The notes beneath the pieces are model-generated. The model did no database searches and had not been told where the DNA came from. It was given only the letters and a program-made list of their open reading frames with translations. DNA of 53,243 bases, the filler included, from Bipalium vagum (taxonomy: Eukaryota): NCBI GenBank assembly GCA_037834085.1. It is 3 parts of 3 records of this genome, joined end to end, with 100 filler letters (N's around TTAATTAATTAA, not from the genome) between each part and the next. Parts side by side here need not be neighbours in the genome. Positions count along the whole stretch, not along the records: positions 1 to 17,800 come from JBBMKC010050807.1; 2 more parts are not named here. One strand, given 5' to 3'. A program made the translations under genes and the position numbers. Positions 1 through 17,800 of this stretch are shown piece after piece (position 1 is the stretch's first letter; every line of letters starts with the position of its first letter).

Positions 1-46
1 TTATTGAATATATATATTTGGTTAATTAGTTGTTTATTTTTTTGAA

Positions 47-77
47 AAACGGCGGGAACTTAGTTGCCAACCTAATA
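47..77. mobile_element. Mariner terminal inverted repeat (end of an element extending off the left edge of the window)
   Basis: AAACGGCGGGAACTTAGTTGCCAACCTAATA is the reverse complement of a TATTAGGTTGG-type mariner TIR and ends in the TA target dinucleotide. Confidence 0.65.
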
Positions 78-155
78 GATTGCGCGACGTGTGGTCTGGC
101 GTTATCATGGAGAAGCAGTGTACCCTTTCTATTGACCAAGGGTGGGTTGATGGCC
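78..155 (-). mobile_element. Mariner transposase fragment
   Basis: Minus strand translates to PPLVNRKGTLLLHDNARPHVAQ, which contains the HDNARPH motif (second catalytic Asp of DD34D). Confidence 0.8.
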
Positions 156-2104
156 TTCAGTTTAGTTTTCAGTAATAGAAAAGTAATATTTATTTATATA
201 TTTGGAATAAATATAAACATCAATATACGTGGTATGAATAAAAAGTCCCTAGACTCGTACAGAAATAAAATTTAGTTACTTTTTACATAACAATATTAAT
301 ATATATAAGAAAATATTATTAAAGCTGCTTTAAATAATAAAGGCCTAATAACACTTTTGTTGTCGCTCTCTTTAAAAATGTACCTGCAAGTGTAACTCAT
401 TTTTTTGCTTCTGAAGAGATCAAAGAAGGACATTATTTGTAAATCACCTGAAAATATGGAAATGAAACTACATGTAATGCTACTATTTATAATAGGATCA
501 GAAATTTTTTTCTGGCAGGAAAAATGAATTTGATGAAGAAAGAATTGAACGATCAAATAAATTTGGTAAAGAGAAAATTTAAAAATTAAATATTATTGTG
601 ACAAGAGATATGAATTACCAAGAGAGCTCTATACTGGTGTTTATTTAAACATTTGACTGTACAGAACATGGTTGAAAAATATGCAGTCAATTTATCCCAT
701 CTTATCAACAGAAGATATATAAAATGTGGATACAAATATCAAGGATATAGCATTATTGTAAGACAATTTTAAAATTTGTTATCCAGTAATTATAAAACAT
801 AATTGAAATAAAATTTAAAATAATTGATGATAAGTGTGAATTGGTGATTTTAATAATGAAAAATAATAATTTCACGATTTACTTAAAATAAGTTTAACTT
901 AAATTTGATATTTAATAGATGAATTCACATAGTAACAACAAAGAAAGCGATTTTTGGTATGATTTTTAGATGAAGATATAAAAAAATTATTATAAAAAAA
1001 ATTTACATTCGATATTTAAAATTTTAATAATGGTCCAAACTCAAAATTATATTGATTGTGTAAAATATATTGATTATATGTTCTAAAAACAGTTTTAAAA
1101 CTAGAATTCCAATATTTTAAAGATGTGAAGAAAGAAAGATTTTATAAAAATGAATTTAATAACAAAGACCAGAAGTGTAAAGAAATAATACTTAATGCTA
1201 TCTTATCTGGAAGAGGTTAAGAAATTCAGCTACTGAATAAATTAGAGAAAACTAAAATATTATTTTTATAGTTTTAAATTAAAAAATCAACGTATGAAAA
1301 TGTTTTTACTAGAAGACATTATATAAATGTTCAGTTATATATTTATCTTAATAATTTTTTGATTTACCTTTAGGTATTAGAAATAATTATATCTTAATTT
1401 TATTTGAAATTTCAAAACGAAATAAAAGTCAAATGATGAACCTTGAGGATTCTTATCAGGATTGAAAGTGATCTTGTTATGTAAATGATTAACTTCATCC
1501 GACCTAAACTGTTGAATCAGGCTGTTTGACGCATTATTAGTCGGATTAGAAAATCAGCATAAGGATTGAGTCTTCTTAACAGCGATGATTGTCAAAGAAT
1601 AAATCATTTTTTGAATACTTAGAAGTCGTATTTTTCTTAATAACTCAAACTATAATGAACGACAGAGTATTTCAATACCTTAAATTTGAATTTGTAAGGT
1701 AAAGGAAAAAGGCTTACAAAAAGTGGAGGAAGTTTCGAACGAAAATTAAATTTATTTCTGAAGATGTTGAAACTTTTTGAAAATATAAAAATTAGATTGA
1801 ATATAATAAATGAAGAGAAAATTAATTGTAAGTCATTTACGGAAATGGTTACTGTAATTAATTTACCTATAGATTTCAGGAGCTTGATGAAGTTTTTATT
1901 GTATCTACTAACTTACAACTTAAGTTTAATATTACATCTTTGCCAGAAATATGGATAGCAGAAATGCAAATGAAGCGTCTGGAAATCCAGAATAAAATTA
2001 TGTGTATAAAATCTTCAACAAATGGTACTACGGATTCAAGAGAATGAAAGAACCACCTCACAGGACATTATATTTAAATGTTGACTTTTTCTCAACTAGC
2101 TATA

Positions 2105-3290
2105 TACTAGGTTGGCCGGAAAGTCTTTGTGCACAATTAGTTACTAATTTTACATTAATATTTTAAAGTAAATCACATTTTTGTTTTGTTACATGTTATA
2201 TATTATTTTAGAGCGCGGTTTTCATATAACGTGATATTATTTTAAAATTTAAAGATTTAAGTTCTTTTAAACATTTATCTAGCTTGAAATGAATGAACAT
2301 AAAATACCAAATCGTGTACTTTTGCACCAATATTGGAAAAAAGGAGCAAGTACAAACATGCAGCCGAACAAAATTTTGAATTTGAAGGTATAGGTATAGT
2401 CCACAGAAATAACGCGACAAACAGGCTTAAGTGCATCAATGATGGTGACAAACCACGACTTCAATAATGAGGCATTATGCGTCGCTTTAGAAAAAACCAC
2501 ATTTTTGTTGCAGAGAATTGTCGACAACACTCTATTTCTAAGTTAACCGTCTATAAAAATGTAATTCACCTGAATTATGAAACAAGATTCACATCAATTG
2601 ACAGTTGAGCAACCAAAAAAACGAGTTGAAATTTAAAATCAGCTCCTTCAAAAATTAGTTTCCAATATTTTTTGAAACGAGTTGTTACGTGGGATGAAAA
2701 ATGGAAATTTTTACATAATCCTCATAACCAACTATAATGGATTTCACAAGAACACAGGCTTTATCAGAGGTACGACAGGATCGTTTCGGAAACAAAGTAA
2801 TGTGTGTTTAGTGGAATTTCGAAGGTATTATACATTTTAACTTGTTCCAAGTGGTAGATTTGTAGACGGTCGTCTTTATGCTGAGCAAATTGATTGAGTA
2901 TACAACGTTTTCAGCAATCATTATCCAGTTTTAGTGGCTAAAAGGCGCCTAATTTATCAGCATAATAATGCTCTTGCACGCCGCTCTCGTGTAGCTCAAC
3001 AAAAATTGAAGGAATTAGTGGAAATAGAAGTTTTACTGCATCCTTCGTATAGTCCAGATATCACACCATCAGATTACGGATTATTCCGTTCCATGGTTGC
3101 TTTCTTACGTGGTAGGCAGGTCAATACATTTAACAAGGTAGAATCGGTATGCCATGAGTTTTTACCCCTGAACCGAAGGAATGGTGTGTATGATAATTTG
3201 TATCTTGAAGAATGATGTCGTTTTGTTTTGTAAAATTCTTTGTTAAATAAATGTTGACTTTATTCACAATACTTTTCGGACAACCTCGTA
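2105..3290 (+). mobile_element. Near full-length decayed mariner (DD34D) transposon
   Basis: Imperfect TIRs TACTAGGTTGGCCGGAAAGT / ACTTTTCGGACAACCTCGTA. Motifs VTWDEKW (~2683), HNNA and LHPSYSPDITPSDYGLF (ORF 2934-3215). Stops and frameshifts throughout. Confidence 0.9.
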
Positions 3291-5640
3291 TAATACAATA
3301 CCAGGGGATTTGGTTTTTGACTCTTCACTCTTTTCGTATCAATCTATATAATTACGAATATTTCTTCTCTTCAATGAATTATAATCAAAATAAATAGAGG
3401 CAAACTGTGCGACAAAAGTTTGAAAACCAAATTAATAATAAAATCCACAACCCCCATTTCAATAAACTGGACAATAACAAACAAAATACTTGTTACTTTT
3501 TTTGTTTGCATTAATTTACTTTACAATATAAATTTGTCTCAATATTATATATTTTATATTTGTATGTCTAGTAACTACAAAATTTAGAAAAATTCAATGT
3601 TATCTCTAAATATATAACATTTTACAGGTTGCTTTTTTGACCTACTTTGCTGCTTACCGTGTTTTCTTACTTTAAAGAAAACTTTCAATAAAAGTGGAGC
3701 CCCCAATTTTAGCCGGCCCACATCTTGGGTTTATTTTAATTAATCGATTATTAGTAATATTAATATAACAGGTTTATTTATAAAAAAATTAGGTAAGAGT
3801 TTGACTTATGAAATGTGAAAATAATTGAAGTATAATTTATAATAATAAAGAGGACTACTTGAAACAAAATAAAAATGACTTTTTTAAGAAGTTCCATCTA
3901 TAATAATAAGTCTTTAATATATTGAGCTCCACTGAAATTAGAAAAATATTGATTCAGACTCATGAAATTTTTGAGAAAATGACAGCGAATATAGTCGTCG
4001 AATTTAACTAAACTTATCATGAGAAATTCTAGCACTACATTTTTAAAATTATTGACAAAATTAATGTTTAAAGTTACCATTTTTTAAATAAAATAAACCT
4101 GTTTTTTAAAAAGTATTTTTTGTGATTAAATTTAACAATGAGTTACATATTTTTATCTTTATATATATATATATATTATATATATATATATAATCTTTAT
4201 ATAAGATAAAAGTTTTAATTTTTTTAAAAATTATATTTAAAATTTTTTTGATCAATTAGTCGCGTCTTGGTCCAAATTATGCAGCTGTAGAATTCCACGG
4301 GGTTTTCTTGCCATGTTCCGATTAAAATCTTAATTTTCTTTAATAAGCCGTTAGAAAGTCCAGTAAGAAAATATAATTGGATAAATTTACTAAAGATAAT
4401 TCTAAATGAGTCAACTTAGAATATCTCATTTAACAAATATTTTTAAAAATGATGTATCGCCTGGGTTATACTTGTCATAAATATTTATCAATAAATGAAT
4501 GGAGAAAAATTGATTTTACTATCAATGAAAAAATTTGAAAGAACAATGAGTTGATCATCAAATAAATTTTAATATGAATATTACTAAAGTTTTTTTGTAA
4601 TAAAAGGTTTTTCCATAAACAAAACATATTCTACTTTAGGTATTATGTTCTTGTCAATCATCAACATGACAAATTTCGAGTATAAATTAGAGTTTTCATT
4701 CTCAAGATTCAGTTGAATTAAGAACTAAAATAAATTGATCATTTATTCTGACACTTTTTTTGTGAATGAGTTTTAAGAACACATAAAGTGGAGATGAAAT
4801 TTTAGGTGCATACTTGATTGAACAGCTTTCGAAAAATGAAAAAGTTTATAGAATTTTAGGTCAAGACAATTCAAATCAAATCCAGTAATTACAAATGTAT
4901 CTAGAAATTTTTCATATATTATGTGATTTACGGTCTATTGTTATAATTTCGTTCATATTTCTCAAAAATATTATACAATCAATAATATTCTTATAGATGA
5001 AAATTGTTATAAGCCATTGATCAACATATTTCACTTCCCAAAAAATTTATTATAATATTGAGGATTATATAAAGCTTCTAAAAGTCAATAAGGGGTTTAT
5101 ATAAAATAATGAAACAAGAATTAATCCATTGAGGAAAAACTTTGATAAATGAACAGGTCTTAAGCTTTTGAGTATACGTTTAAAATTTTCGGTTTTATTA
5201 TCAATTCCAAAAAAATTAGTGCATTGCAGAACATTGAATGTTTTTTAAAGCACCATTTATGAAAAAAGGCTCCTGTGACCATTAAAGGAAGATTGAAAAA
5301 TGACTAAAGATTTACCAGTTACTAATCAATATTTATGTGTTATTAAGCATAATTTCCAATAACTTATTTTTATTTCTTTTCGATTTTTCCATTTAAATTT
5401 CTAATGTTTTATGAACATTGTTAATTTTTCTATTTTCTAAAAACTAATAATAACAAAGGTTTATAACTATTAATTAATCTCATTTCAAATACATATTTTA
5501 TCAGCTACATTGTTTAATTACACTAATTAAATTAATTTATTATTTTCATATCTCAAAATTTCGCTAATGAAAATTGAAAAGCAAGTTTACATTTTATACA
5601 TTGTATTGTAATAACATTTGTAATTTTACATGCCTTTAAT

Positions 5641-6618
5641 TTGTTATTTAGCATGTTTACAGATGACATACGACAAAGAATAATTGATGCCCTGATAAAG
5701 GAAATTTCGAATATACTAAATGTTAATTTATCAACGGTTTATTCCGTTTTGAAAATTTTTGTAAATGAAAATCGTATTGAGCATAAATTAAAAGGTGATG
5801 AAAGTGGGAAATCATTAAACACGGAACATATCAATGCATTAAAGTCTTTGATTGACGAAGATGCTGGCATAACTCTTAAAGCATTAAGATCTAGATTAAG
5901 GGAAAAGTTTAATATTTCAGTATGCGTGAAAACTGTGAATAATTACGTTAAAGGATTTTCTTATACATTTAATAATATCTTGTTAATGCCGGTAAGAAGA
6001 AATGATGAACGAGAAAAATATGCACAATGCTTTTTAAATACCTTATCATTATTTGATGAGTCCAAATTGTTCTTCGTTGATGAGGTAGGCTTCAATATAT
6101 CCATGCGCTCAAGAAATGGAATATCATTATGTGGAAAGAGAGCAATTCATGTCGTACGTGGATTGCTCTCACGTAACATCTCCGTCTGTTGCGCAATGAA
6201 TAAAAATGGAATTGTCCATTATCATGCACAGACGACTGCACATAACACGATTACATTTCAGGCGTTTATAACAGAATTAATAGCAAAAGATTTAATTCGA
6301 GAACATGGACCTGTGGTAATCATAATGGAAGATGTTCCATTCAACAAATCGACAGTCATACGTGAAATGGTAGAAGAAAGGGGTCATAAGGTATTGTTTT
6401 TGACTCCTTATTCTCCGTTTCTAAATCCTATTGAGAACTTATTCTCAAAATGCAAACAAAGCATCAGACAAGTTCGTCCTGATAATGAAAAAGATTTATT
6501 TGGATTGATCGACAACGTAGGAAATTTAATAGGCGCTGATGATTGTAATTCTTATTACAGACACATTTTTAAATTCCTAAAAAAATGTTTTAATAAGGAG
6601 CTCGTCTATGATGATTAA
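5641..6618 (+). mobile_element. Tc1/IS630-like (DDE_3) transposase ORF, 325 aa, uninterrupted
   Basis: N-terminal HTH-like region, FFVDEVGF (first D), VIIMEDVPFNK (second D position reads E), LFLTPYSPFLNPIENLF (E), with 34-residue spacing. TIRs not identified. Confidence 0.9.
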
Positions 6619-7705
6619 ATGTTTATATGTAAATATATGTAATATATATTTTTAAAATTGATTTACAAAAATTTGAAATGAGGTTATAAACCCTGTATTA
6701 TAAAACTTTATAATTTAATTAGATTGTAAAATTTTTAAAATATGTTCTAATTTGTAAGGTTGTTTTTTCAAATCTTTAATTCAAGTTTATTCAAATAAAA
6801 GATTAATTTTCAGTGACCTTTAAACTTTACAAGTTAGTTTTGATAATATCCTCATGTTACACATTAGAACTAAAAAATGCTCACTTTCCAAAAATAAATT
6901 AATTAGTAATATTTTAATAAAGATCAATAAACCAAAGGTCCTTCAATAAAGATCTCTGACTCAAGCTTATGAAATGAATGCTAGCAGAAAAACATGATTC
7001 TTTAAAGATCAATAAAAAAAAGTCAAAAATCGATTTTCAAAAAATCGTTTTATTTCATAAAATAATTTCTTAATTAACTGAATATATCAATAATACATCA
7101 CTTCATAACCACTTATAATAATTTTGAAACAGAATGGTTATTATTATTCTTCTATAATAACAAGTTTTATTTACTACAATAAGAAAAGAAATTACTAAAA
7201 AAAAAGTAAAAATTAACAAAAATAATGATGAATGCAAAGTAACTCTTAAAAACCCAATACCAATTAGATTAAATGAAATTTTATCGCTATTAAGAAATAA
7301 AATTCAGATTTTCTTTAGCTTTTTTTAAAAATTTATTGTTTAACCATCTGTTATGTCTTGTATTAAATCGAGTAAACTAGGAAATTTTAAATTTTTTCCT
7401 AAATCTTCTGGTACTTTCCTTCTAGGCTTTTACCCCCACAAAATGATTTAAAATCCTGCTTTTTAGATAAAAAGTCATAATCTTTTTGCGCTTTCTAAAA
7501 ATAAAATAATTTTTCTTTGGAAATATAGAATTATAATTTCTCTGCCTTATTTTTGAATTACAGTAAATTCCTGTTTCAGCATATATGTTTCCAAGATATC
7601 TACATTCACCCAACAGATCAATGCAACCTTTTTTGGAAGTTTAAATTTTTAGAAACAGAATCTTAGATGCATAATTTCTCAACCATTAATCACACATGAC
7701 AAATG

Positions 7706-8986
7706 TACGTGGTGCGTCGTCCAATAAGTCCGTGCAATAACTAGGAAAACAATTTAATGGAAACACTCAACTTTTACACAGTAACATAACATCATTTTTC
7801 GACATGAGTCATTTACATCGATACACTTTTGCCAGCACTGGATCAGTTCTAAGAATGCACTTTCGAAGAAATCTGAGGACTGATCACGCGAGAAACTCTC
7901 CACCTCTTCTCTCAGATCTTCAGCATTAGCAAAATGTTTACCACACAAAAATCTCTTCATATACCTAAAGAGATAAAAATTGCTGGAGGCAAGGTCTGGA
8001 TTGGGGATGGTCTAATAGGTCGAATCCACACTTTCCTCTAGAATTCGCATGGATGCTGGGATTTATGGATTGGTGCATAGTACTGGAGAAACAACATTGG
8101 AATGCTCCTTTATTTTCGTCGAGCACCTCGGCATTTGTACACGAGATCAGAATAGTATGCAGAGTTGAGCATGGTCTTTTTTTCAGCAAAATCGACAAGA
8201 AAAACACCATGAAAATTCCAAAAAATGCTCAGCATCAAATATTTTCTGTTGAAGTTTCCAGATCTCATCTTCCTGAAACTTGATTCTGCAGGAAATTTCC
8301 ATTCACTTGACTCGAGTTTAGATTATGGAAGATGCAGACTGAGAGTTGTTTCATCTTGCATGATGATATATCTTAGAAATGCCTCACAATGTCGTTGGAA
8401 AAGGAGGTTTGCCTGAGAGCATCCAGGCACTTCTCACACATCTGATGATAAAAAGCGGGGAATAAATCTAGACGCCAGCTTTTTCACTCTAAATTTTTGC
8501 AGGATTGCTTATATGGTTTCTTTGCTCGCACTAACAACATCAGCCAGTGCTCGCGTTGTGATTCGACAATCTTCTCGAAATTAAGATTCACATTTTCTTT
8601 TATCTTTAAAGAAATTTCACATGGGTGTCTAGTCCCTTGGTCATCAAAAATTGACTGTCTCTCCTGTTTAAACAGTGCAATCTACGTGTACATTGTTTTT
8701 CGTGAAGAAAAATCCTCGCCATATGTCCCCCCCAATTGGGAAAAAAATTTGTCATTTGGAATATGGCGTAATATCAGGAGGTTTATAAATATGTGATATT
8801 CCACTGCATTAACCATGACTTGCACTAAATTACAAAATCCCGCGAATGCCAATATAAGCGGTAATGATAACTTAAAACAAACTACACAAATTAAACATAA
8901 CAATATAGCGACAATAAAAATTTCATTGCATGACAAAATATGTTTCCTTCGCACATATTACACAGACTTACCGGAAACATCACATA
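7706..8986 (-). mobile_element. Full-length decayed mariner transposon (~1.28 kb)
   Basis: TIR pair TACGTGGTGCGTC(GTC)CAATAAGTCCGTGCAATA / TATTACACAGACTTACCGGAAACATCACATA. Minus-strand fragments include the N-terminal HTH region (8682-8954) and C-terminal KRFLCGKHF...ELIQCWQKCID (7754-7960). Confidence 0.88.
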
Positions 8987-9880
8987 TATTCCTGATTAAG
9001 TCATAAAAAAATTCCAATATTTAATTTTGCTGAAATTTGTGAATAGTTTTCCATATAAAAGTTTGTCTAGCAAATAGGATTTGAAATTCACTAGTAAGCT
9101 ACTGACAAATTTTGCTTCCATCTTTCATTTTTGTACCAATGGATTCACCATATTTAAAAATTGTATCACTGGTTTTTTCATGATCATTAATTTACTAGTA
9201 TTTGGAAGTACAATAAATCAGTGAAAAATTAAAAAAAATTTCTGAATGTAGAAAACCCAGAAGGTTAAATATTAAAATTCAGACGAATGAACTCCTTTCA
9301 ATTCAACGGGAATTTAAATTTCTGTACGAAGAGAAGTGCTGTTTCATGATAATGAATAGAAGCACAGATCTACTCATGTAAACTGATATCACATTCACCA
9401 TTCCCTCCAGACTTAGGTCCGTTTGTTTTTTCTGGTCTCCAAACATGAAAAGATAGATTCCGTGTAAAAAATGTAATTCAAATGCTAAAGTAAGCACCTA
9501 TTTAGATTGATTTCTAGATAGAAATAATAAAGAAACTTGAAAATTGTTGGGTTAAGTTCATGGAGGTGTTTGAATATCAATAATATTATTCATATTTGCA
9601 AACAAAATTTTTTTGTTATCTTCGTAAATAAATGTAATCATTAAAAGTCAATAAGTTACTTTCTTAATTATTACCGTTTAACAAAAATTAAAAATTACCT
9701 TAAGTAAATTTAATTTTAAACGAATTTGAATTAAAATTCAGTTGTTTTAGCCAAAAATTTTTAAAAAGACATTGAAATATGTAACTTATTTGTTTTGAAA
9801 TATTCATTTAGAAAAACAACGGCGTGATATTTAAATGTGATTAGAATAAATCTTAGTAACTTTAATACAAACAAACTTAC

Positions 9881-10061
9881 CAACATATTGTCGAATACTG
9901 ACAATAGAAATAAAAATCACAATCAATCCACTTGTAAATTGATAATTCAACTGATCTGCAAAATCCACTCCCTCTCCGCCATAGGCAGTTTTGAATAGTC
10001 GACCAATTTTGAATACAAATCCACTTTCCATGAGACCTCCACCACCAGTTCCTCTTGTCAT
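9881..10061 (-). CDS. Innexin (invertebrate gap-junction protein), first coding exon
   Basis: Translates to MTRGTGGGGLMESGFVFKIGRLFKTAYGGEGVDFADQLNYQFTSGLIVIFISIVSIRQYVG. DFxDxLNY, TM1 and QYVG are innexin hallmarks. Canonical donor G|GTAAGT at 9881/9880. Downstream exons not found in this contig. Confidence 0.9.
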
Positions 10062-11859
10062 TATTTACTTATTCCAAGAAAGCACAATAATTTTAGGAAT
10101 TATGAAAAAATCAATTGTCAATTGAAGATTAATCAAAAAAGGCCTGATTGTCAATTGTGGTGACATGGTGGTGTTTCAAAAGATATGATTTGAAAAATGG
10201 TCAGAAAACCATTAAGCCAAGTTGCACAGTGGTAAATACTTTAGTAAAATTCAATTTTTCACAACAGTATTTACGGATAATTTGAGCCACAAATCAATAA
10301 TAATATTCAATCTAACATGGAGGGTACGAGTTGCAATGTGTTATTCAAAATATGCAGCAGTACACGACTGAGGCAACCAGCAAGAGATAATTTCATACCT
10401 AAAGTGAGTAGCGAAAGCTGAGTATGCAAACTTTGAAGACGCAGTGTTATTGGAATTTTGTCATTTCCACGTCATTGGTGTGTGTGTCTTTTCAGAAATG
10501 CTCGTGTACGTGTGGCTGTGTGTGTGGCTGTATTTTCATATTTTTTCCACGGACACCGTGTGTTAATACAATGGAAAGATTAAAACGTCATCAATTACAA
10601 AAATGTAGCGATTTAAAACTTAATGGATGAGGGGATATGGAAACTCTGCTGGCTATAGATACATATACACACAAACAATGAAAGTAGTAGATTTTCTCCT
10701 CGGTATGTGTGTATTCTGCCATATTACCCCGTGTGTATGCGTGTGTGGTATATTGTTGATAAAATTCTGGATGATCTTTTGTAATTGTTTAACAGGTTTA
10801 CTATCTCTATGATATGTCTACACGTCCTCCAAGAATTTTTTTCTTGCAAGAAATATGTACAAACAATTTTCTCTGAATTTTCCTGGAGTTTGCGAACTTC
10901 TCAATTCCAGTTTTATTTTTCTGTGCCTTGTGGGGTTAGAAATAAATTTTTATAATAATTCTCTGTTGATTTCACCAGTTTTTGTATGGGATGAAATAGC
11001 ATTTATAAATGGTTTATATATTCAATGTAGTTTTAAAAAAATAGTGTGAATATGATAGTAAAAAAAATTCTAACTGTTGTCATCTGAATTTTATATTAGC
11101 TGATGTGGAATGATGTTCGATGGGAAAGCTTTTGAAAAATGATAATAACATGATCCACTCCATTTTATCTGCTATAATTAATGGTTTTTATTCAGAAATT
11201 ATTATTTAGTATTGATTTTGTCTGTCTAAAAATAAATGCTATTAATATAATTGTTAGTGGTTGGAGGTTATCAATGTTTTCCAAATCTGTTGAATTAATT
11301 GAAGATAAAGTACAGATAAAGTAATGATTGTTTTGAATATTTTTTATGTTTTTCTGATTATAATTCAATACTTACAGTATTTTTCTAATTTTTTCTTAAA
11401 CTTAATTCGAGAATTTTATAAATTTACACTATATTTTCTTTAAAATTTTAATTTCAATACATAATTTGTGTTATCCTCATAATTAATGATTTAAATTAAA
11501 TATTTAAAATTACAATAATTAACAAACTAAAATTGACACAAAGGTGTTAAAACTGTAGAGTAAAAAAATATGCCAAATCGACATTCTGAATGATATAGTT
11601 AGAACACTAGCTTATATATTTTAAAAATAAGCATTACGTCTTTGGCAAAATTTTGTCTGAGTTAAGACAAATCAAGAATGGTTTCATGTATAAACATTGA
11701 ATCTTAGTCTAGAATAATGTACCTCTTCAACCCCATACTTGAATCATATGGATTATAAAATATGGTATTTTTTTACAGAAGATTTGGACTAAGTTTAGGG
11801 GTTTTAAGAATTATAAATTGTTTTATTAATATTTTGTTGGGTCGCCGAAGATCCAATCC

Positions 11860-13920
11860 TGATTAAAAGAGTTGGGTATGCCTCGTAACATTCTTCGAAG
11901 TCTACGAGTGAATATATTTTTTCCATCTTTGAATTTGTGCAGTCGTATTCTACCAATGCATTAATTCTATTCATCGTGTTTAAAAACATCATCATGATTA
12001 TTTGCATCATTGGTAATAGTGAGTCGTTTGTCAATTGTCTATTCCACCTGGGTTGACTATACCCTCTTCTTGGCTTTTCCAGCCTTGTTCTTTGTCTAAA
12101 TTTTGACTGTCTTCTAGGAGGTTCAGGTGATCTTTCTGGGGTTGATCCGGCCCCTGTTTCTGATGTCTGCTTTGTCGCAATAGACTTCGCCATCATTCGT
12201 TTAACTGCACCAATGATCCAAAATAATCTTTAATCATTTTATTAGCTCCTTAAATTAATATTTCCGTATTTCGTCTTCCTGACTCTAGATTCATTTTATC
12301 CGCTTTTTTCAAAATTAATGCAATACCTATCATTGCCTTTTCTTTATCCATCCTCCCTTCTCATAATTGCGCTAACTACATCTCGTCGCTCATGCTATCT
12401 GGTTCTTCCACAAAATCTTCAATATCTGATAAAATTTTCGAAATTTCTAAAAATATTTTTATTGTTAAATTTTCTGGTTCTCCAGTCGTCTCTATTGGTG
12501 GATCCATTAATTCTATCAATCCCCGTAATCGCTCCTGGTCTTCCTTTGTGGTTTCATCATATGCTTCTTCTTCATGTTGTTTTATGTAACAGTCGGCTAA
12601 TCTGTGTAAAGATTCTCTTCTTACAATTCTTTTAGTTTCTTTGCTAATTCCTTGAGGACGAGGTGCATTTGAGTCCTTCCTTGGTCTCCAAACTGGTTTA
12701 TTTCAGAGTCTTGCTTGACGGTCTTTCCTTTAAGCTTCTTCTCATGATTGTTCTGCTGGTGAAATTTCTCTTGCTCCTCATGGTTCTTCTTCCTCGAATA
12801 TTTCCTCTAAGACTACAATTTCGGACCGTACTTCTGTTGTTACTTCAGGTGGTCCACAGTCTAATAAGTATTCTTCATCATCTAGCTGATATGCATTCCA
12901 GAAAATTACAATGATCAATCCCCGAACCATTACTTGATTTGCTTTTTCTCTTACTGCTCGGACCATTGCACAATAATGAAATTCTACGTCCGTTTCTTCG
13001 TATCCAATCATTTTTAATTTGATTTTTATTAGTCGTTGACCTATTCCTCTTAATCTCATATATCTTCCGTATCTACGGATCACGGATCTGCCTGCTGAAT
13101 ACCAAACTCTCTTATATGTGGTTTAATTACTTTGACTATTCTTCCAAGCATCATTGGAGTAACCGCTAACTCCCTTAACTGACTTAACAAATCCATAATT
13201 CTGCCTTTGTTTCTTGGCGTCCTTGTGAATTCCCGTTCTAGTACCTCTGGAAGTGTATTATATTCTTCTTGATCCAAATTCACTAATGCCATTATTACGT
13301 TCCGATTAACATCTATTTTTTCTTCCAGCGAATTGTTTCTAGTTAATATCTTAATTTCATTTTCCTGTGATTTGGATCATTGATATCGTTTCGTGTCCAA
13401 TTATTCTGGACAACTGTCGCCTTAATTCTTCTTTTTCTGCCCTCATTTTCTCTGTATCGTCATCATTTTCCATGTCTCTTACCATGTTTATTTTTGCATA
13501 ACCAAATGCCGACCTTTTAACCACCTTTGGTAAAGTCTTTTCACTAAAACAAGATTTCGCCATTTGTCCATACTGCTTAAATTTAAAGCATTGTACTTTC
13601 CCATTGATGTTTACATTATCTCTTTAAGGTGAATTCTTTGCAAACACGTTTCTTTCAAATGTCCTCTTTTATTACAATACCTAAAATTTTTATGTTACAC
13701 CCTTTTGCGAAATGACCTGTTTCATTACAGTTTCTATAAACTATATCTGTATTCCTCCTCTGATCCTTTCCTGGACTTGGAACAAATTCTAATTTCCTAG
13801 CTCGACATTAATTTGCTACATGCCTTGACTTCTGACAATTAAAACATTTCTTGACTATTTGCTAAATGTTGTCCTTAAATGTTGAATAGCATCTTGTGCA
13901 ACGATGAATACCATTTCTAG
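11860..13920 (-). mobile_element. Decayed retroelement-like region: gag-type CCHC knuckles, unknown ORF, env-like glycoprotein N-terminus
   Basis: Four degenerate zinc knuckles at 13550-13850 (CFNCQKSRHVAN*C, YRNCNETGHFAKGC, RYCNKRGHLKETC, CFKFKQYGQMAKSC). A long coding-like frame with scattered stops and frameshifts follows, then a hydrophobic signal-like stretch and ALVEYDCTNSKMEKIYSLVDFEEC near 11890-12030. Confidence 0.72.
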
Positions 13921-13939
13921 GTGAATGGCGCTATAAACA

Positions 13940-14280
13940 CAAAAAATTGTGTAATCTGGTCTGCGAAAAAATCAAAAAAATCTGCATTCACAAAAAAGTG
14001 GCGTTATGGATAGGCGTCTCCCAACATTTTACTCTTTAACTACCATGAAACTATCTATGATTAGCACTATCTTTCAGTGATTAAAGAACATGTTAAACTA
14101 GTTTTGGGGAAAAATAAGAAGCTTCGTTCCATTATTTTCAATAGTATGGAGCTCCTGCACATATCTTCGGTAATGTTTCATAGCTTCTGTTACAGCAATA
14201 TAAAACTAGCAACGAAAAGCGTTTCTCACAAGACAACTGCATCAGTCATTGAAAACTTGGTTGTTCGATTGTAGTATATA
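13940..14280 (+). mobile_element. Tc1/mariner-superfamily (DD37D/DD41D-type) transposase remnant
   Basis: Degenerate NCVIWSAK...HSQKVALWIGVS and IFQ*YGAPAH, resembling the FQQDGAPAH motif. Confidence 0.6.
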
Positions 14281-14528
14281 GGGATGGAAATGGTGGATAT
14301 ATCAATCATCTATTATGAATATTGAAAATATTCATAACTTGATTATAACAGTTACATCAATTGTACTGTAGACTGTCTATTTTTTTATTGATAATAGATT
14401 TATTTTTATTTTGAAGTGATTTATGAAAAATGTACTTTTTTCCTCTGCAAGAATAAGAAAAAAATAGACAAAATAACCTTGTAAAAAATGAACATATAAT
14501 ATGTAAAGATTTACAAACTTGATTAAAA

Positions 14529-14560
14529 TATTGGGTTGGTGCAAAATAATGGCGATTTTA
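14529..14560. mobile_element. Solo mariner TIR
   Basis: TA-TTGGGTTGGTGCAAAATAATGGCGATTTT resembles the cecropia/Hsmar1-type TIR TTAGGTTGGTGCAAAAGTAATTGCGG. No partner TIR seen. Confidence 0.5.
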
Positions 14561-15619
14561 GCAAATATAAAATTCTAGAACTCAGTTCAAATAAGAGTTA
14601 ATTTGGTTACAGTTATAAAATTTCACAATGAGTCCAAGATTAATCCTTGTAAGTTTGAAATCTAGTTTATTCTTATAGATCACGCAAAAACTTAAGAGAT
14701 AATGATTATAATTTGATATACAAAAAATAATGAAAATAAAAACCGAGATTAAAACCTTTTATAAATCGCGACATTCTAAAAAAAGAATACATTTTCAACA
14801 ATATATTTTTATAATAGAAACATTACAGGTGTTAATTTACAAGGTAAATTACTTACAATATCAATCAAAATGCAATGAAATAACTACAGCAAAACATGTC
14901 CAGAAATTAAAAATGCAAATCAATTCACTAAATTCATGTTTATATGTATCAATTGTACAAAAGAAATATGGTCTTTTGATGAAATAGATCAACGTGGAGT
15001 AGATATGAAATCTATGACATTAATGTTGAGGCATCTTTATTGTGCCTGAAATTTAAATAAATAAAACAATAAATCAAACAAATTTCTCTAATTGACAAAG
15101 TAATTATTCTTCATTATTACTTCAAAATAATTTTTAATTACCCCAAGACTTAAAATGTTACCTTAAAACGCTGTAACGCTGATAAAAGTTAGAAGAATTT
15201 AATAATTTTTTTTTCTAATTTTGCATTTCTAATAAATCATATGTTAATGAAAAATTTTAAACTAGTTCTAAAAAAATATTTATTTCATTTTATTAATAGC
15301 ATCATAGATGAAAATAAATACTTTTTATTTTTAAAAAAGTTTAACCAGAAAACATGAAATATTAAAATATTGATAATTTTAAATAATATTTGTTTTAAAC
15401 ATATAAAACAGATAAGGCGGTTTTTTAAATATTATGAATTTTTATAGTTTTGAAGTTTGCATAAATTATTTTTAAATTGTTTTTACAGTTATTTATTGCC
15501 TAATAATTAACCAATTGTTATTGAATAAACTTGAATAAAACCAAATTAATTTATAACTATTTAAGTTTTATGGTTTATAGAATATTTATTAAAAGAAAAC
15601 AAGATTAATTTATTTAATA

Positions 15620-16829
15620 TATTAGGTAGTCTAAAATGTATTGAGCCTTTAGACGTCAAAATTAAGACAAAGAATTAACATAATAATAAACATAATTAAA
15701 CCAAATATGCGGCGTTTAGTTCGATGACCTTCTGCCATTTCTCTTTCAAGATCATAATTCGATTCCTGTAAAATTTTTCTGATTTCTGTTCAAAGAATTG
15801 AGCCAAATACTTTTCTCGCTCATCTTTTGAATTTAATTTCACATTATGAAGGGATTGTCACGTAAACCTAAACATATGATAATCCTACAGTGCAATGTCT
15901 AGAATATATGATATATGCATCAAAACCTCCCATCCCAATTCTCAATTTTTGATGGGATTAATAAATTTATGTGGTCAGGCGTTGTCATGATGAAAGATGA
16001 CAGCTTTTCTGTTCATAAGTCTCGGTTGTTTTATTTTAAGTAATAGTTCCAATTTTGATAATTGTTGACAGTAAAGAACTGAGTTAATCATTTTACCAAT
16101 CTGGAGAAGCTCATAATGCAGAATACTTTTGAAATACCACCAAACAGCTAATATTACCTTTTTTGAAGTCAACCCAGACGAAATGTTTTTTCAACCATGA
16201 TCTTTTTCGAACAATGTTTTCATATGTAATTCATTTTTCATCCCGTTGATTAAAAATCTCAAAAAGACACCACTTTCATTTCTTTTTATTAGCGATTTGC
16301 AAATTTTAATTCTATCGAATAAATTTTTTGTTCAAAAATTATGTGGCACCCAAACATTGAGTTTCTTTTGGTATCTTGACTTCTTTAAATGATTTTAAAC
16401 TGTTTGTTGAGTAAAATGTAGTTCTTTCGAAAAGGTATGATTGCTTGCATGTCGTTCTTCTTCATCTTTTGCCATTATTTCTTAAATTTTTTATGTGATT
16501 GGTGGACAGGATCGACATCAAAATTTCTAGAACGAAATCGACAGAACCATCTTTTGGCTGTTGCTTCGGATAAGATATCATCATCATAAACTGTACAAAT
16601 TTCTTAACGCGCTTCAAAACAAATTGAACCTTTGCATTATAATCCTGATTTTTCCGGTTTTTTCACTCATGTTTAACGCTTTCTAAAATAGATCTGAATC
16701 AATACATATAAATTTAAAACATCTCAATGTAAGAATAAATTTAATTACCTCTTTAATGTTAATTATAATATGTGAAATTTAAGACTCTAAAGCTATAAAA
16801 AGGCCCAATACTTTTTATACTACATAATA
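15620..16829 (-). mobile_element. Full-length decayed mariner transposon (~1.2 kb)
   Basis: TIRs TATTAGGTAGTCTAAAATGTATTGAGCCT / AGGCCCAATACTTTTTATACTACATAATA. Motifs WVPHN, KKVILAVWW and VIFHHDNA (ORF 15975-16172). Confidence 0.92.
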
Positions 16830-17301
16830 TTAACCAATTAAATTCTGGAAAAAAATATAATACTTTTTATTCAATTAAATAAACTTAATTTTTGAATATT
16901 ACAGAAATCAATAAATATTATTTTATATTTTAATATTGATTATTGTAATTATTTTATAATTGATATTGTTTTGTCTTTATTAAAAATATTATGAAAAATG
17001 GAACACCAACTAACTTTCGAATATATAATTATGGTAACATTTATTAAAAAAAAGGTTTCTCAATGGTTTTTTTTAAAAATGAAAAAAATTATTCTTTTTG
17101 AATAAATGATGTCTTATTTTAACTATCGCGATTTAATTGTAAATTGTCCACCAGTTTGGATATTGGTAGTCAAGATGCTGTTAAGAACTTTTTGATAACA
17201 TGAAAAATTATAAATCATATTTATTGGTTAAAGGATAAAATAAACTTAAAATAATCAAATGAAATCTTCATAATTTATTTATTAAATACTTAAATTCCAT
17301 A

Positions 17302-17606
17302 CTATTCCATATGACAATTTGATGAACATTTGCATCTTTGAACGAAATGGACACCACGTCGATACTGACGACCATTGTCACATTGAAATTGAATCTCTCT
17401 CGTTCGATATTTGGAAGGAACACAGCAGTGTGAAGAAAAATTATGGTTTGGTTTGTGAAAAAAGCTTTTACTAATATCAGCTTGCATTCTGTTGTTTGGA
17501 CACGATCCTTCACAATAACGATATTCAACTTTCTTAATTGATAAGCACAACGTATCTGGATCTTTTATATAATTCTTAACCATTTTCCTATGGCACATTG
17601 AATTTT
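17302..17606 (-). CDS. slit: Terminal exon encoding a C-terminal cystine-knot (CT) domain, most similar in pattern to Slit
   Basis: ENSMCHRK...CLSIKKVEYRYCEGSC...CCVPSKYRTREIQFQCDNGRQYRRGVHFVQRCKCSSNC-HME-stop follows the Slit CT cysteine pattern (C..KKV...CxGxC...CCxP...R...FxCxxG...CxC). Phase-1 acceptor TTACAG at 17607, with AATAAA just downstream of the stop. A CCN or mucin CT domain is not excluded. Confidence 0.7.
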
Positions 17607-17800
17607 CTGTAATTAAAATCATTATTTTAATAAATAATAATAATAAAATATTAAATAATAATAAAAGATTAATTTTACATTATATATTTCTGTTACATCA
17701 ACAAAAATAATTTTTTTATATATTAAAGCTTGTCCACGATGAAATTGTCGCATTTTAAAACTTAAATAATATCAACACCAAACAATATATTTGCAAACAA

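Follow-up and report, generated by a model that had tools for sequence, protein, structure and literature searches.

A dead 2-kb retroelement fragment, very probably from a gag-cargo-env-pol Ty3/gypsy family related to Burro and the planarian errantiviruses

Introduction

Envelope-bearing LTR retroelements of flatworms have been described in two bodies of work. Burro/GYPSM1, a group of giant gypsy elements of Schmidtea and Dugesia, carries env between gag and pol, in frame with both, and places SUMO-like and BCL2-like domains ahead of env (Arkhipova and Yushenova, 2019, PMC6431247, section 7); in planarians, Burro1 becomes expressed upon PIWI knock-down (PMC8532177). According to Chary and Hayashi (eLife, PMC13524379), Platyhelminthes elements follow a GAG-ENV-POL order with an HSV/gB-type envelope, nine flatworm elements being listed. 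Captured accessory genes are also found further afield, as in the bdelloid Juno/Vesta LTR elements, whose ORF3 encodes a DEDDy exonuclease (PMC5408684).

The locus described here lies in a window of 53,243 nucleotides (the whole stretch of DNA analysed), of which positions 1-17800 correspond to contig G000:C50807 and carry the fragment. We are confident that the fragment, 2 kb long and dead, comes from the interior of a multicopy Ty3/gypsy LTR element with the order gag-cargo-env-pol, which was likely expressed as one polyprotein of about 3,300 aa and is a compact relative of Burro and of the Smed errantiviruses. The Ty3/gypsy affiliation is predicted from domain matches and pol order. A flatworm host is likely, given that the closest named env sequences are planarian and that the best COX1 match reads AAA at five positions of conserved Asn, fitting mitochondrial table 9.

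The fragment and its surroundings

The sequence resembles sister copies from 13876 down to 11863-11871, which defines an internal fragment on the minus strand (11863-13876), and no further pieces of the element occur elsewhere in the window. Neither the capsid nor pol nor either LTR is present in the window copy, which also lacks most of env, and every domain that it retains contains stops and frame breaks. At 13876 it is cut by a different repeat, and at its other end by a deletion lying some 30 codons into env. The repeat adjoining the 5' break (13877-14430, plus strand) is dispersed and lies outside the element, many matches starting at query position 7-8, equivalent to window 13876-13877. 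From its motifs we take it to be Tc1/mariner-like; Pfam gave no relevant match for this identity in the 5' flank. The 3' flank is low-copy. Further out, a minus-strand exon-like frame at 9880-10130 resembles what we take to be an innexin N-terminus (motif DFADQLNYQFT), and a decayed, presumably mariner-like transposase with the motifs WVPH and HDNA.PH lies at about 15900-16500, also on the minus strand. Kin pieces of the latter repeat (family D8) occur at 90, 42703 and 46039 of the window.

Reading along the minus strand, the fragment opens with four degenerate CCHC zinc knuckles (13549-13846), the nucleocapsid end of Gag, at about 13846-13805, 13738-13697, 13685-13644 and 13590-13549 in three different frames. 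Their zf-CCHC match is weak here (13655-13807, E 0.0024) and clear in the sister copy L016 (E 6e-10), and in sister copies the capsid sits upstream of them. They are followed at 13030-13548 by a charged, coiled-coil-like stretch and a small helical domain of unknown function without deletion (spacings of 560 versus 561 and 374 versus 381), which is helical in an AlphaFold model and common to the relative P0002 among 148 fetched proteins (E 9e-10). A predicted ubiquitin-like domain whose end is missing (12853-13029) and a predicted Bcl-2-like domain with four stops (12180-12639) come next, separated by an acidic linker that bears a copy-specific deletion of about 168 nt (12816-12853; spacing between the two domains 297 versus a modal 465). 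An Arg/Pro/Ser-rich linker (12020-12179), a predicted internal signal peptide (11957-12019) and the first 30 or so codons of the envelope glycoprotein (11863-11956) close the fragment. Compared with 42 other loci, spacing is typical of the family except for this 168-nt shortfall and small ones elsewhere.

Much of the first-pass annotation is borne out by this anatomy: the four tandem knuckles, the linker, the hydrophobic stretch and the YDC segment are all present on the minus strand, and the coding-like sequence behind the knuckles, described there as broken by stops and frameshifts, yields HSPs in frames -1, -2 and -3 with 0-4 stops each. The annotation had likewise seen no protease, RT or integrase motif, and a minus-strand scan of 11000-15000 for D[ST]G[AS], YxDD and TDAS was empty, confirming that protease, RT and RNase H motifs are absent there.

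Copy family and age

A DNA search of the element's own genome with a 2.3-kb query returned at least 71 matches, 40 of 845 candidates having been scored. The long matches share 75-87% identity with the query, and in many contigs they are collinear through both halves, that with the knuckles and that with YDC. The features are therefore not chance, and the two halves belong to one element, as the first-pass annotation had it, rather than being unrelated adjacent insertions. Pairwise identity among copies has a median of 84.2% and a maximum of 93.5% (480 pairs). The copies are old, and young ones may be hidden by an assembly of 272,664 contigs. Intact ORFs in copies more than 98% identical, which in PMC13524379 serve as a criterion of activity and not of lineage, were not found, the maximum of 93.5% over 480 pairs coming from a fragmented assembly that may conceal young copies. 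No intact copy was present among those fetched, nor did any hold a complete natural env frame, and the single ORF was therefore pieced together from overlapping frames of different copies.

LTRs, for which the first-pass annotation had proposed a check, exist at the level of the family. LTR-like direct repeats whose segments are 97-98% identical, with one large indel, flank the pol-less copy L019 (G000:C98031), in which gag, cargo, env start and env tail follow one another between the LTRs; this copy is a true non-autonomous derivative. A primer site with a TGG start has 35 exact matches (none for the reversed control) and agrees with the 3' end of a tRNA-Trp(CCA) gene at all positions but one. 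The window copy has neither LTRs nor primer site.

Other copies show rearrangements of their own. L053 (G000:C43464) and L051 (G000:C249604) carry internal deletions that remove env and cargo, and in L053 a single open frame leads from the first knuckle to the protease, giving an ordinary-looking gag-pol derivative. In L032 (G000:C85500:1-6749) the first and last 77 bases are identical and lie within the LTR, as expected for the ends of a circular or collapsed one-LTR unit; this contig joins the primer site, the Bcl-2-like part, the env start, pol and the 3' ORF.

Envelope, pol and the polyprotein

On the minus strand the hydrophobic stretch (LLPMMQIIMMMFL) runs from 12019, and VEYDC follows at 11953. 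The hydropathy peak of this stretch reaches 2.16 in the sister copy L017, from which the signal peptide is predicted, and stays below the threshold of 1.5 in the window's own copy; in 18 of 19 copies the signal peptide and YDC share a reading frame. The 141-aa window frame at 11804-12229 matches PF24664 (Monjiviricetes_fusion, a fusion glycoprotein of chuvirus type) weakly (E 0.0068, profile positions 5-47), and three sister frames match it far more strongly (E 4.7e-22, 2.5e-32 and 1.2e-36), over profile positions 4-602. In the family env, signal peptide and transmembrane anchor appear as hydrophobic segments. These matches support the earlier suggestion that the YDC segment forms the N-terminal part of a glycoprotein of chuvirus/gB type that is Cys-rich and anchored in the membrane, as judged from sequence, and the sister copies with env and pol, together with the table 9 fit of COX1, agree with the description of the locus as a remnant of an enveloped flatworm retroelement.

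Sister copies run from capsid through four knuckles, cargo and env to protease, RT, RNase H and integrase. Env precedes pol in every copy that bears both kinds of landmark, and L016, L045, L047 and L050 show gag, env and pol landmarks in that order. The pol of sister copies matches RVP, RVT_1 (E 1e-28), RT_RNaseH (E 5e-40) and rve (E 4e-11) in the Ty3/gypsy order PR-RT-RNaseH-IN, a family-level result. Between protease and RT lies a domain of about 160 aa with no Pfam match. It may correspond to the dUTPase-like domain that Burro has at this place.

The continuity of this coding sequence was assessed at landmark junctions. Of 15 that could be tested, 13 are open in at least one copy, and in 11 of these the modal spacing is divisible by three, with ties in 2 others. 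Open copies number 6 of 18 from the BH2-like motif to the signal peptide, 18 of 19 from the signal peptide to YDC and 5 of 20 from the env tail to the protease. L038:932-2086 is one stop-free frame of 385 aa that runs from env through a hydrophobic anchor into the protease (PF24664 E 8e-23; aspartyl protease E 2e-5), and it is the single copy behind the env-anchor junction. Relatives in a protein library join env and pol within one chain, 2,100-3,200 aa long: one chain, P0020, holds knuckle, env, PR, RT, RH and IN, P0008, P0013 and P0026 are env-pol chains, and P0002 joins knuckles, env and PR. Several tandem aspartyl-protease-like domains stand behind env in P0002, P0003, P0005 and P0008. The lengths given for the family, about 3,300 aa and 13-14 kb, are estimates from modal spacings.

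Alternative readings of the locus

The absence of pol motifs had been explained by a deletion of pol with its junction near 13370, or by a gag-env unit that is non-autonomous in itself, and the existence of pol-less derivatives such as L019 gives this some plausibility. The distance from the first knuckle to the helical domain, which spans 13300-13400, is however 560 nt in the window copy against a mode of 561 nt in 20 copies, so that no pol deletion lies near 13370; L011 and L027 are open from the knuckles into the helical domain. As a description of the family, a gag-env unit fails because pol lies downstream of env in many sister copies, and LTRs are missing from both ends of the window copy. 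We regard either version as very improbable. Another proposal would retain the gene order and make gag-cargo, env and pol separate ORFs, or link them by programmed frameshift or read-through, which would suit the many copies that are out of frame at each junction as well as the two junctions without any open copy, the env N-half (4 of 10 copies in frame, none open) and RNaseH-to-integrase (none of 5 copies open or in frame). Against it, stop positions vary from copy to copy while modal spacings stay in frame, L038 is open from env to protease, and the relatives are single chains; it appears improbable, if somewhat less so than a missing pol.

Domestication of the fragment, or its retention as a host gene, would have as its sole argument the proximity of a probable host exon, the presumed innexin-like frame. 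A sequence interrupted by stops and frame breaks in every domain, with flanks that are low-copy or belong to another repeat, is hardly what a maintained gene would look like, and of all the readings this one deserves the least credence. An inert internal fragment of a gag-cargo-env-pol element that probably coded for one polyprotein is the reading retained below.

Cargo domains

The middle stretch, which the first-pass annotation took for an extra, uncharacterised ORF, is instead in-frame cargo made up of predicted helical, ubiquitin-like and Bcl-2-like domains; two of these parts have already been named for Burro, in section 7 of PMC6431247. AlphaFold models of the cargo domains are of low confidence (pLDDT 47.6, and 58.6 for the Bcl-2-like domain).

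The ubiquitin-like part, of about 70 aa, is predicted from HHalign (probability 85.7%, score 32.5 versus a shuffled maximum of 14.8) against 20 ubiquitin-family frames of the same genome, a set that includes row L082, which is a wrong frame. Atlas leads for this domain reach 0.84-0.85, all below 0.9; a PDB sequence search with the profile of the helical and ubiquitin-like parts gave no matches, and the ubiquitin fold is absent from the fold-search lists of the low-confidence model. Pestiviruses use a ubiquitin-like domain as a cleavage signal for host deubiquitinases. Such a role was considered here and rejected because the C-terminal Gly-Gly is missing.

The last 155 or so amino acids of the supposed ORF form the Bcl-2-like domain, in which the family retains a BH2-like motif. 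Searched against PDB, its profile found Bcl-2 family members in 60 of 60 cases among the matches listed (best E 0.01, driven by BH2), and Foldseek with the model of pLDDT 59 likewise gave, among the matches listed, Bcl-2 family rows throughout (probability 0.72-0.99, E 0.03-0.12). HHalign against five Pfam-defined Bcl-2 frames of the same genome reached 93.3% with a score of 48, versus a shuffled maximum of 15 and cross-controls below 1%. In the relatives P0004 and P0024, Pfam Bcl-2 matches (E 0.001-0.002) lie directly upstream of env. Less favourable are the VIA Z scores, in which Bcl-2 chains (up to 7.3) are tied with unrelated helical bundles (7.8), and Pfam Bcl-2 itself, which gave no score at the cut-off (best 0.14, for the folded copy). 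The BH1 signature NWGR is absent, the aligned position reading RMDKEK, as it is in the seven relatives shown. Atlas had no usable match for this domain. As weak negatives, a homologous-protein search with the Bcl-2-like profile returned only three proteins, all already collected, and one with the cargo and the env C-half returned none among longer proteins, up to 2,000 aa. The BH2 motif is present in P0006 and P0017 and absent from P0002, which retains the helical and ubiquitin-like part.

The 3' region

Behind the integrase the frame continues into a hydrophobic stretch, an ectodomain, a Thr-rich stalk, a likely transmembrane helix and a basic tail; among 57 loci scanned, most of which stop short of the region, 10 are open from integrase to the hydrophobic stretch and 7 from there to the ectodomain. 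In L107 a separate 3' ORF of 668 aa matches ISG20 (E 9.7e-5 alone, 1.7e-6 as a profile). Of the DEDDh set D-x-E...D...H...D, the motif I Glu occurs in 0 of 14 covering copies and the H...D pair in none, and the product is predicted to be catalytically dead. Elsewhere in the same genome, L121:1351-2514 (G000:C194782) is a 387-aa frame free of introns whose DEDDh exonuclease is intact; it shares 29% identity and a similar acidic tail with the family's dead 3' ORF, and a related element may carry it as the same cargo.

A possible mode of action

The topology, cleavage and functions that follow are all predicted. In the once-active element, the internal signal peptide would direct the polyprotein into the ER, where host signal peptidase would separate the Gag-ubiquitin-like-Bcl-2-like portion from Env; the former, cytosolic, would stay anchored by the signal helix. 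The C-terminal anchor of Env would return the chain to the cytosol, so that protease, RT, RNase H and integrase would remain attached to the tail of Env until released by the element's own protease. A small surface protein would start from the second hydrophobic stretch, behind the integrase. Host cell death would be the most likely target of the Bcl-2-like module. A bolder and rather doubtful proposal is that in compact planarian errantiviruses the env signal peptide is used twice, as polyprotein cleavage site and as a tail anchor that makes the upstream Bcl-2-like domain a membrane-anchored regulator of cell death, that pol is packaged via the Env tail instead of Gag, and that the dead ISG20-like protein may be a decoy against RNA defence. 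In the open-access literature searched, no description of ISG20-like cargo in such elements was found; the dead active site of that ORF and the dual-use signal-anchor idea are the only details for which this applies.

Comparison with known systems

The locus itself is inert, and young, intact relatives in other genomes would be better material. Should the cargo be functional, these elements would manipulate host cell death much like large DNA viruses.

The family shares with the GAG-ENV-POL errantiviruses of PMC13524379 its gene order, gB/chuvirus-type env, Ty3/gypsy pol order and, in all likelihood, a flatworm host. Among six env segments compared by eye, that of Smed_errantivirus_4 is the most alike (ATFEYYCG, FLEA and TP.VLVS.D are shared). 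Those elements are intact, whereas the Bipalium family is decayed (median 84%, maximum 93.5%, 480 pairs), and for the six Smed elements that paper gives no LTR or tRNA, whereas the family has a tRNA-Trp site. The main text of that paper has no matches for Bcl, ubiquitin, Burro or polyprotein. Nematode non-canonical ERVs (Sacco et al., 2022, as cited in PMC13524379) also place env before pol, in a different host phylum.

With Burro, as set out in section 7 of PMC6431247, the family has in common env in frame between gag and pol, a ubiquitin/SUMO-like and then a BCL2-like domain, both before env, an extra domain between protease and RT, and several CCHC knuckles. It differs in size (an estimated 13-14 kb and 3,300 aa, versus more than 30 kb and 4,873-5,140 aa) and in having four knuckles as opposed to two or three. 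The MATH, BIR and ankyrin cargo of Burro has neither sign nor room here: the capsid-to-env spacing totals about 2.3 kb, and no Pfam matches to these domains were found in the cargo frames scanned. The element thus works like Burro and is not filed as Burro, because the giant size and the MATH/BIR/ankyrin cargo are lacking. The post-integrase membrane protein and the ISG20-like ORF are family features unmentioned in that section. For the latter, the nearest parallel is Juno/Vesta, in which a DEDD-family exonuclease was also captured as a 3' accessory ORF, of DEDDy/RNase D-like type with intact residues (PMC5408684), in contrast to the ISG20/REX-like type without its catalytic set seen here.

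Taken together, the window element has a known layout, that of Burro and the planarian GAG-ENV-POL errantiviruses, in an old and decayed fragment. With its family the planarian gag-env-pol lineage reaches another likely flatworm genome. The family also indicates that ubiquitin-like and Bcl-2-like cargo is common to the giant Burro and the compact errantiviruses of PMC13524379, which links that paper to PMC6431247, two sources that, in the main text of the one and section 7 of the other, do not cite each other's terms.
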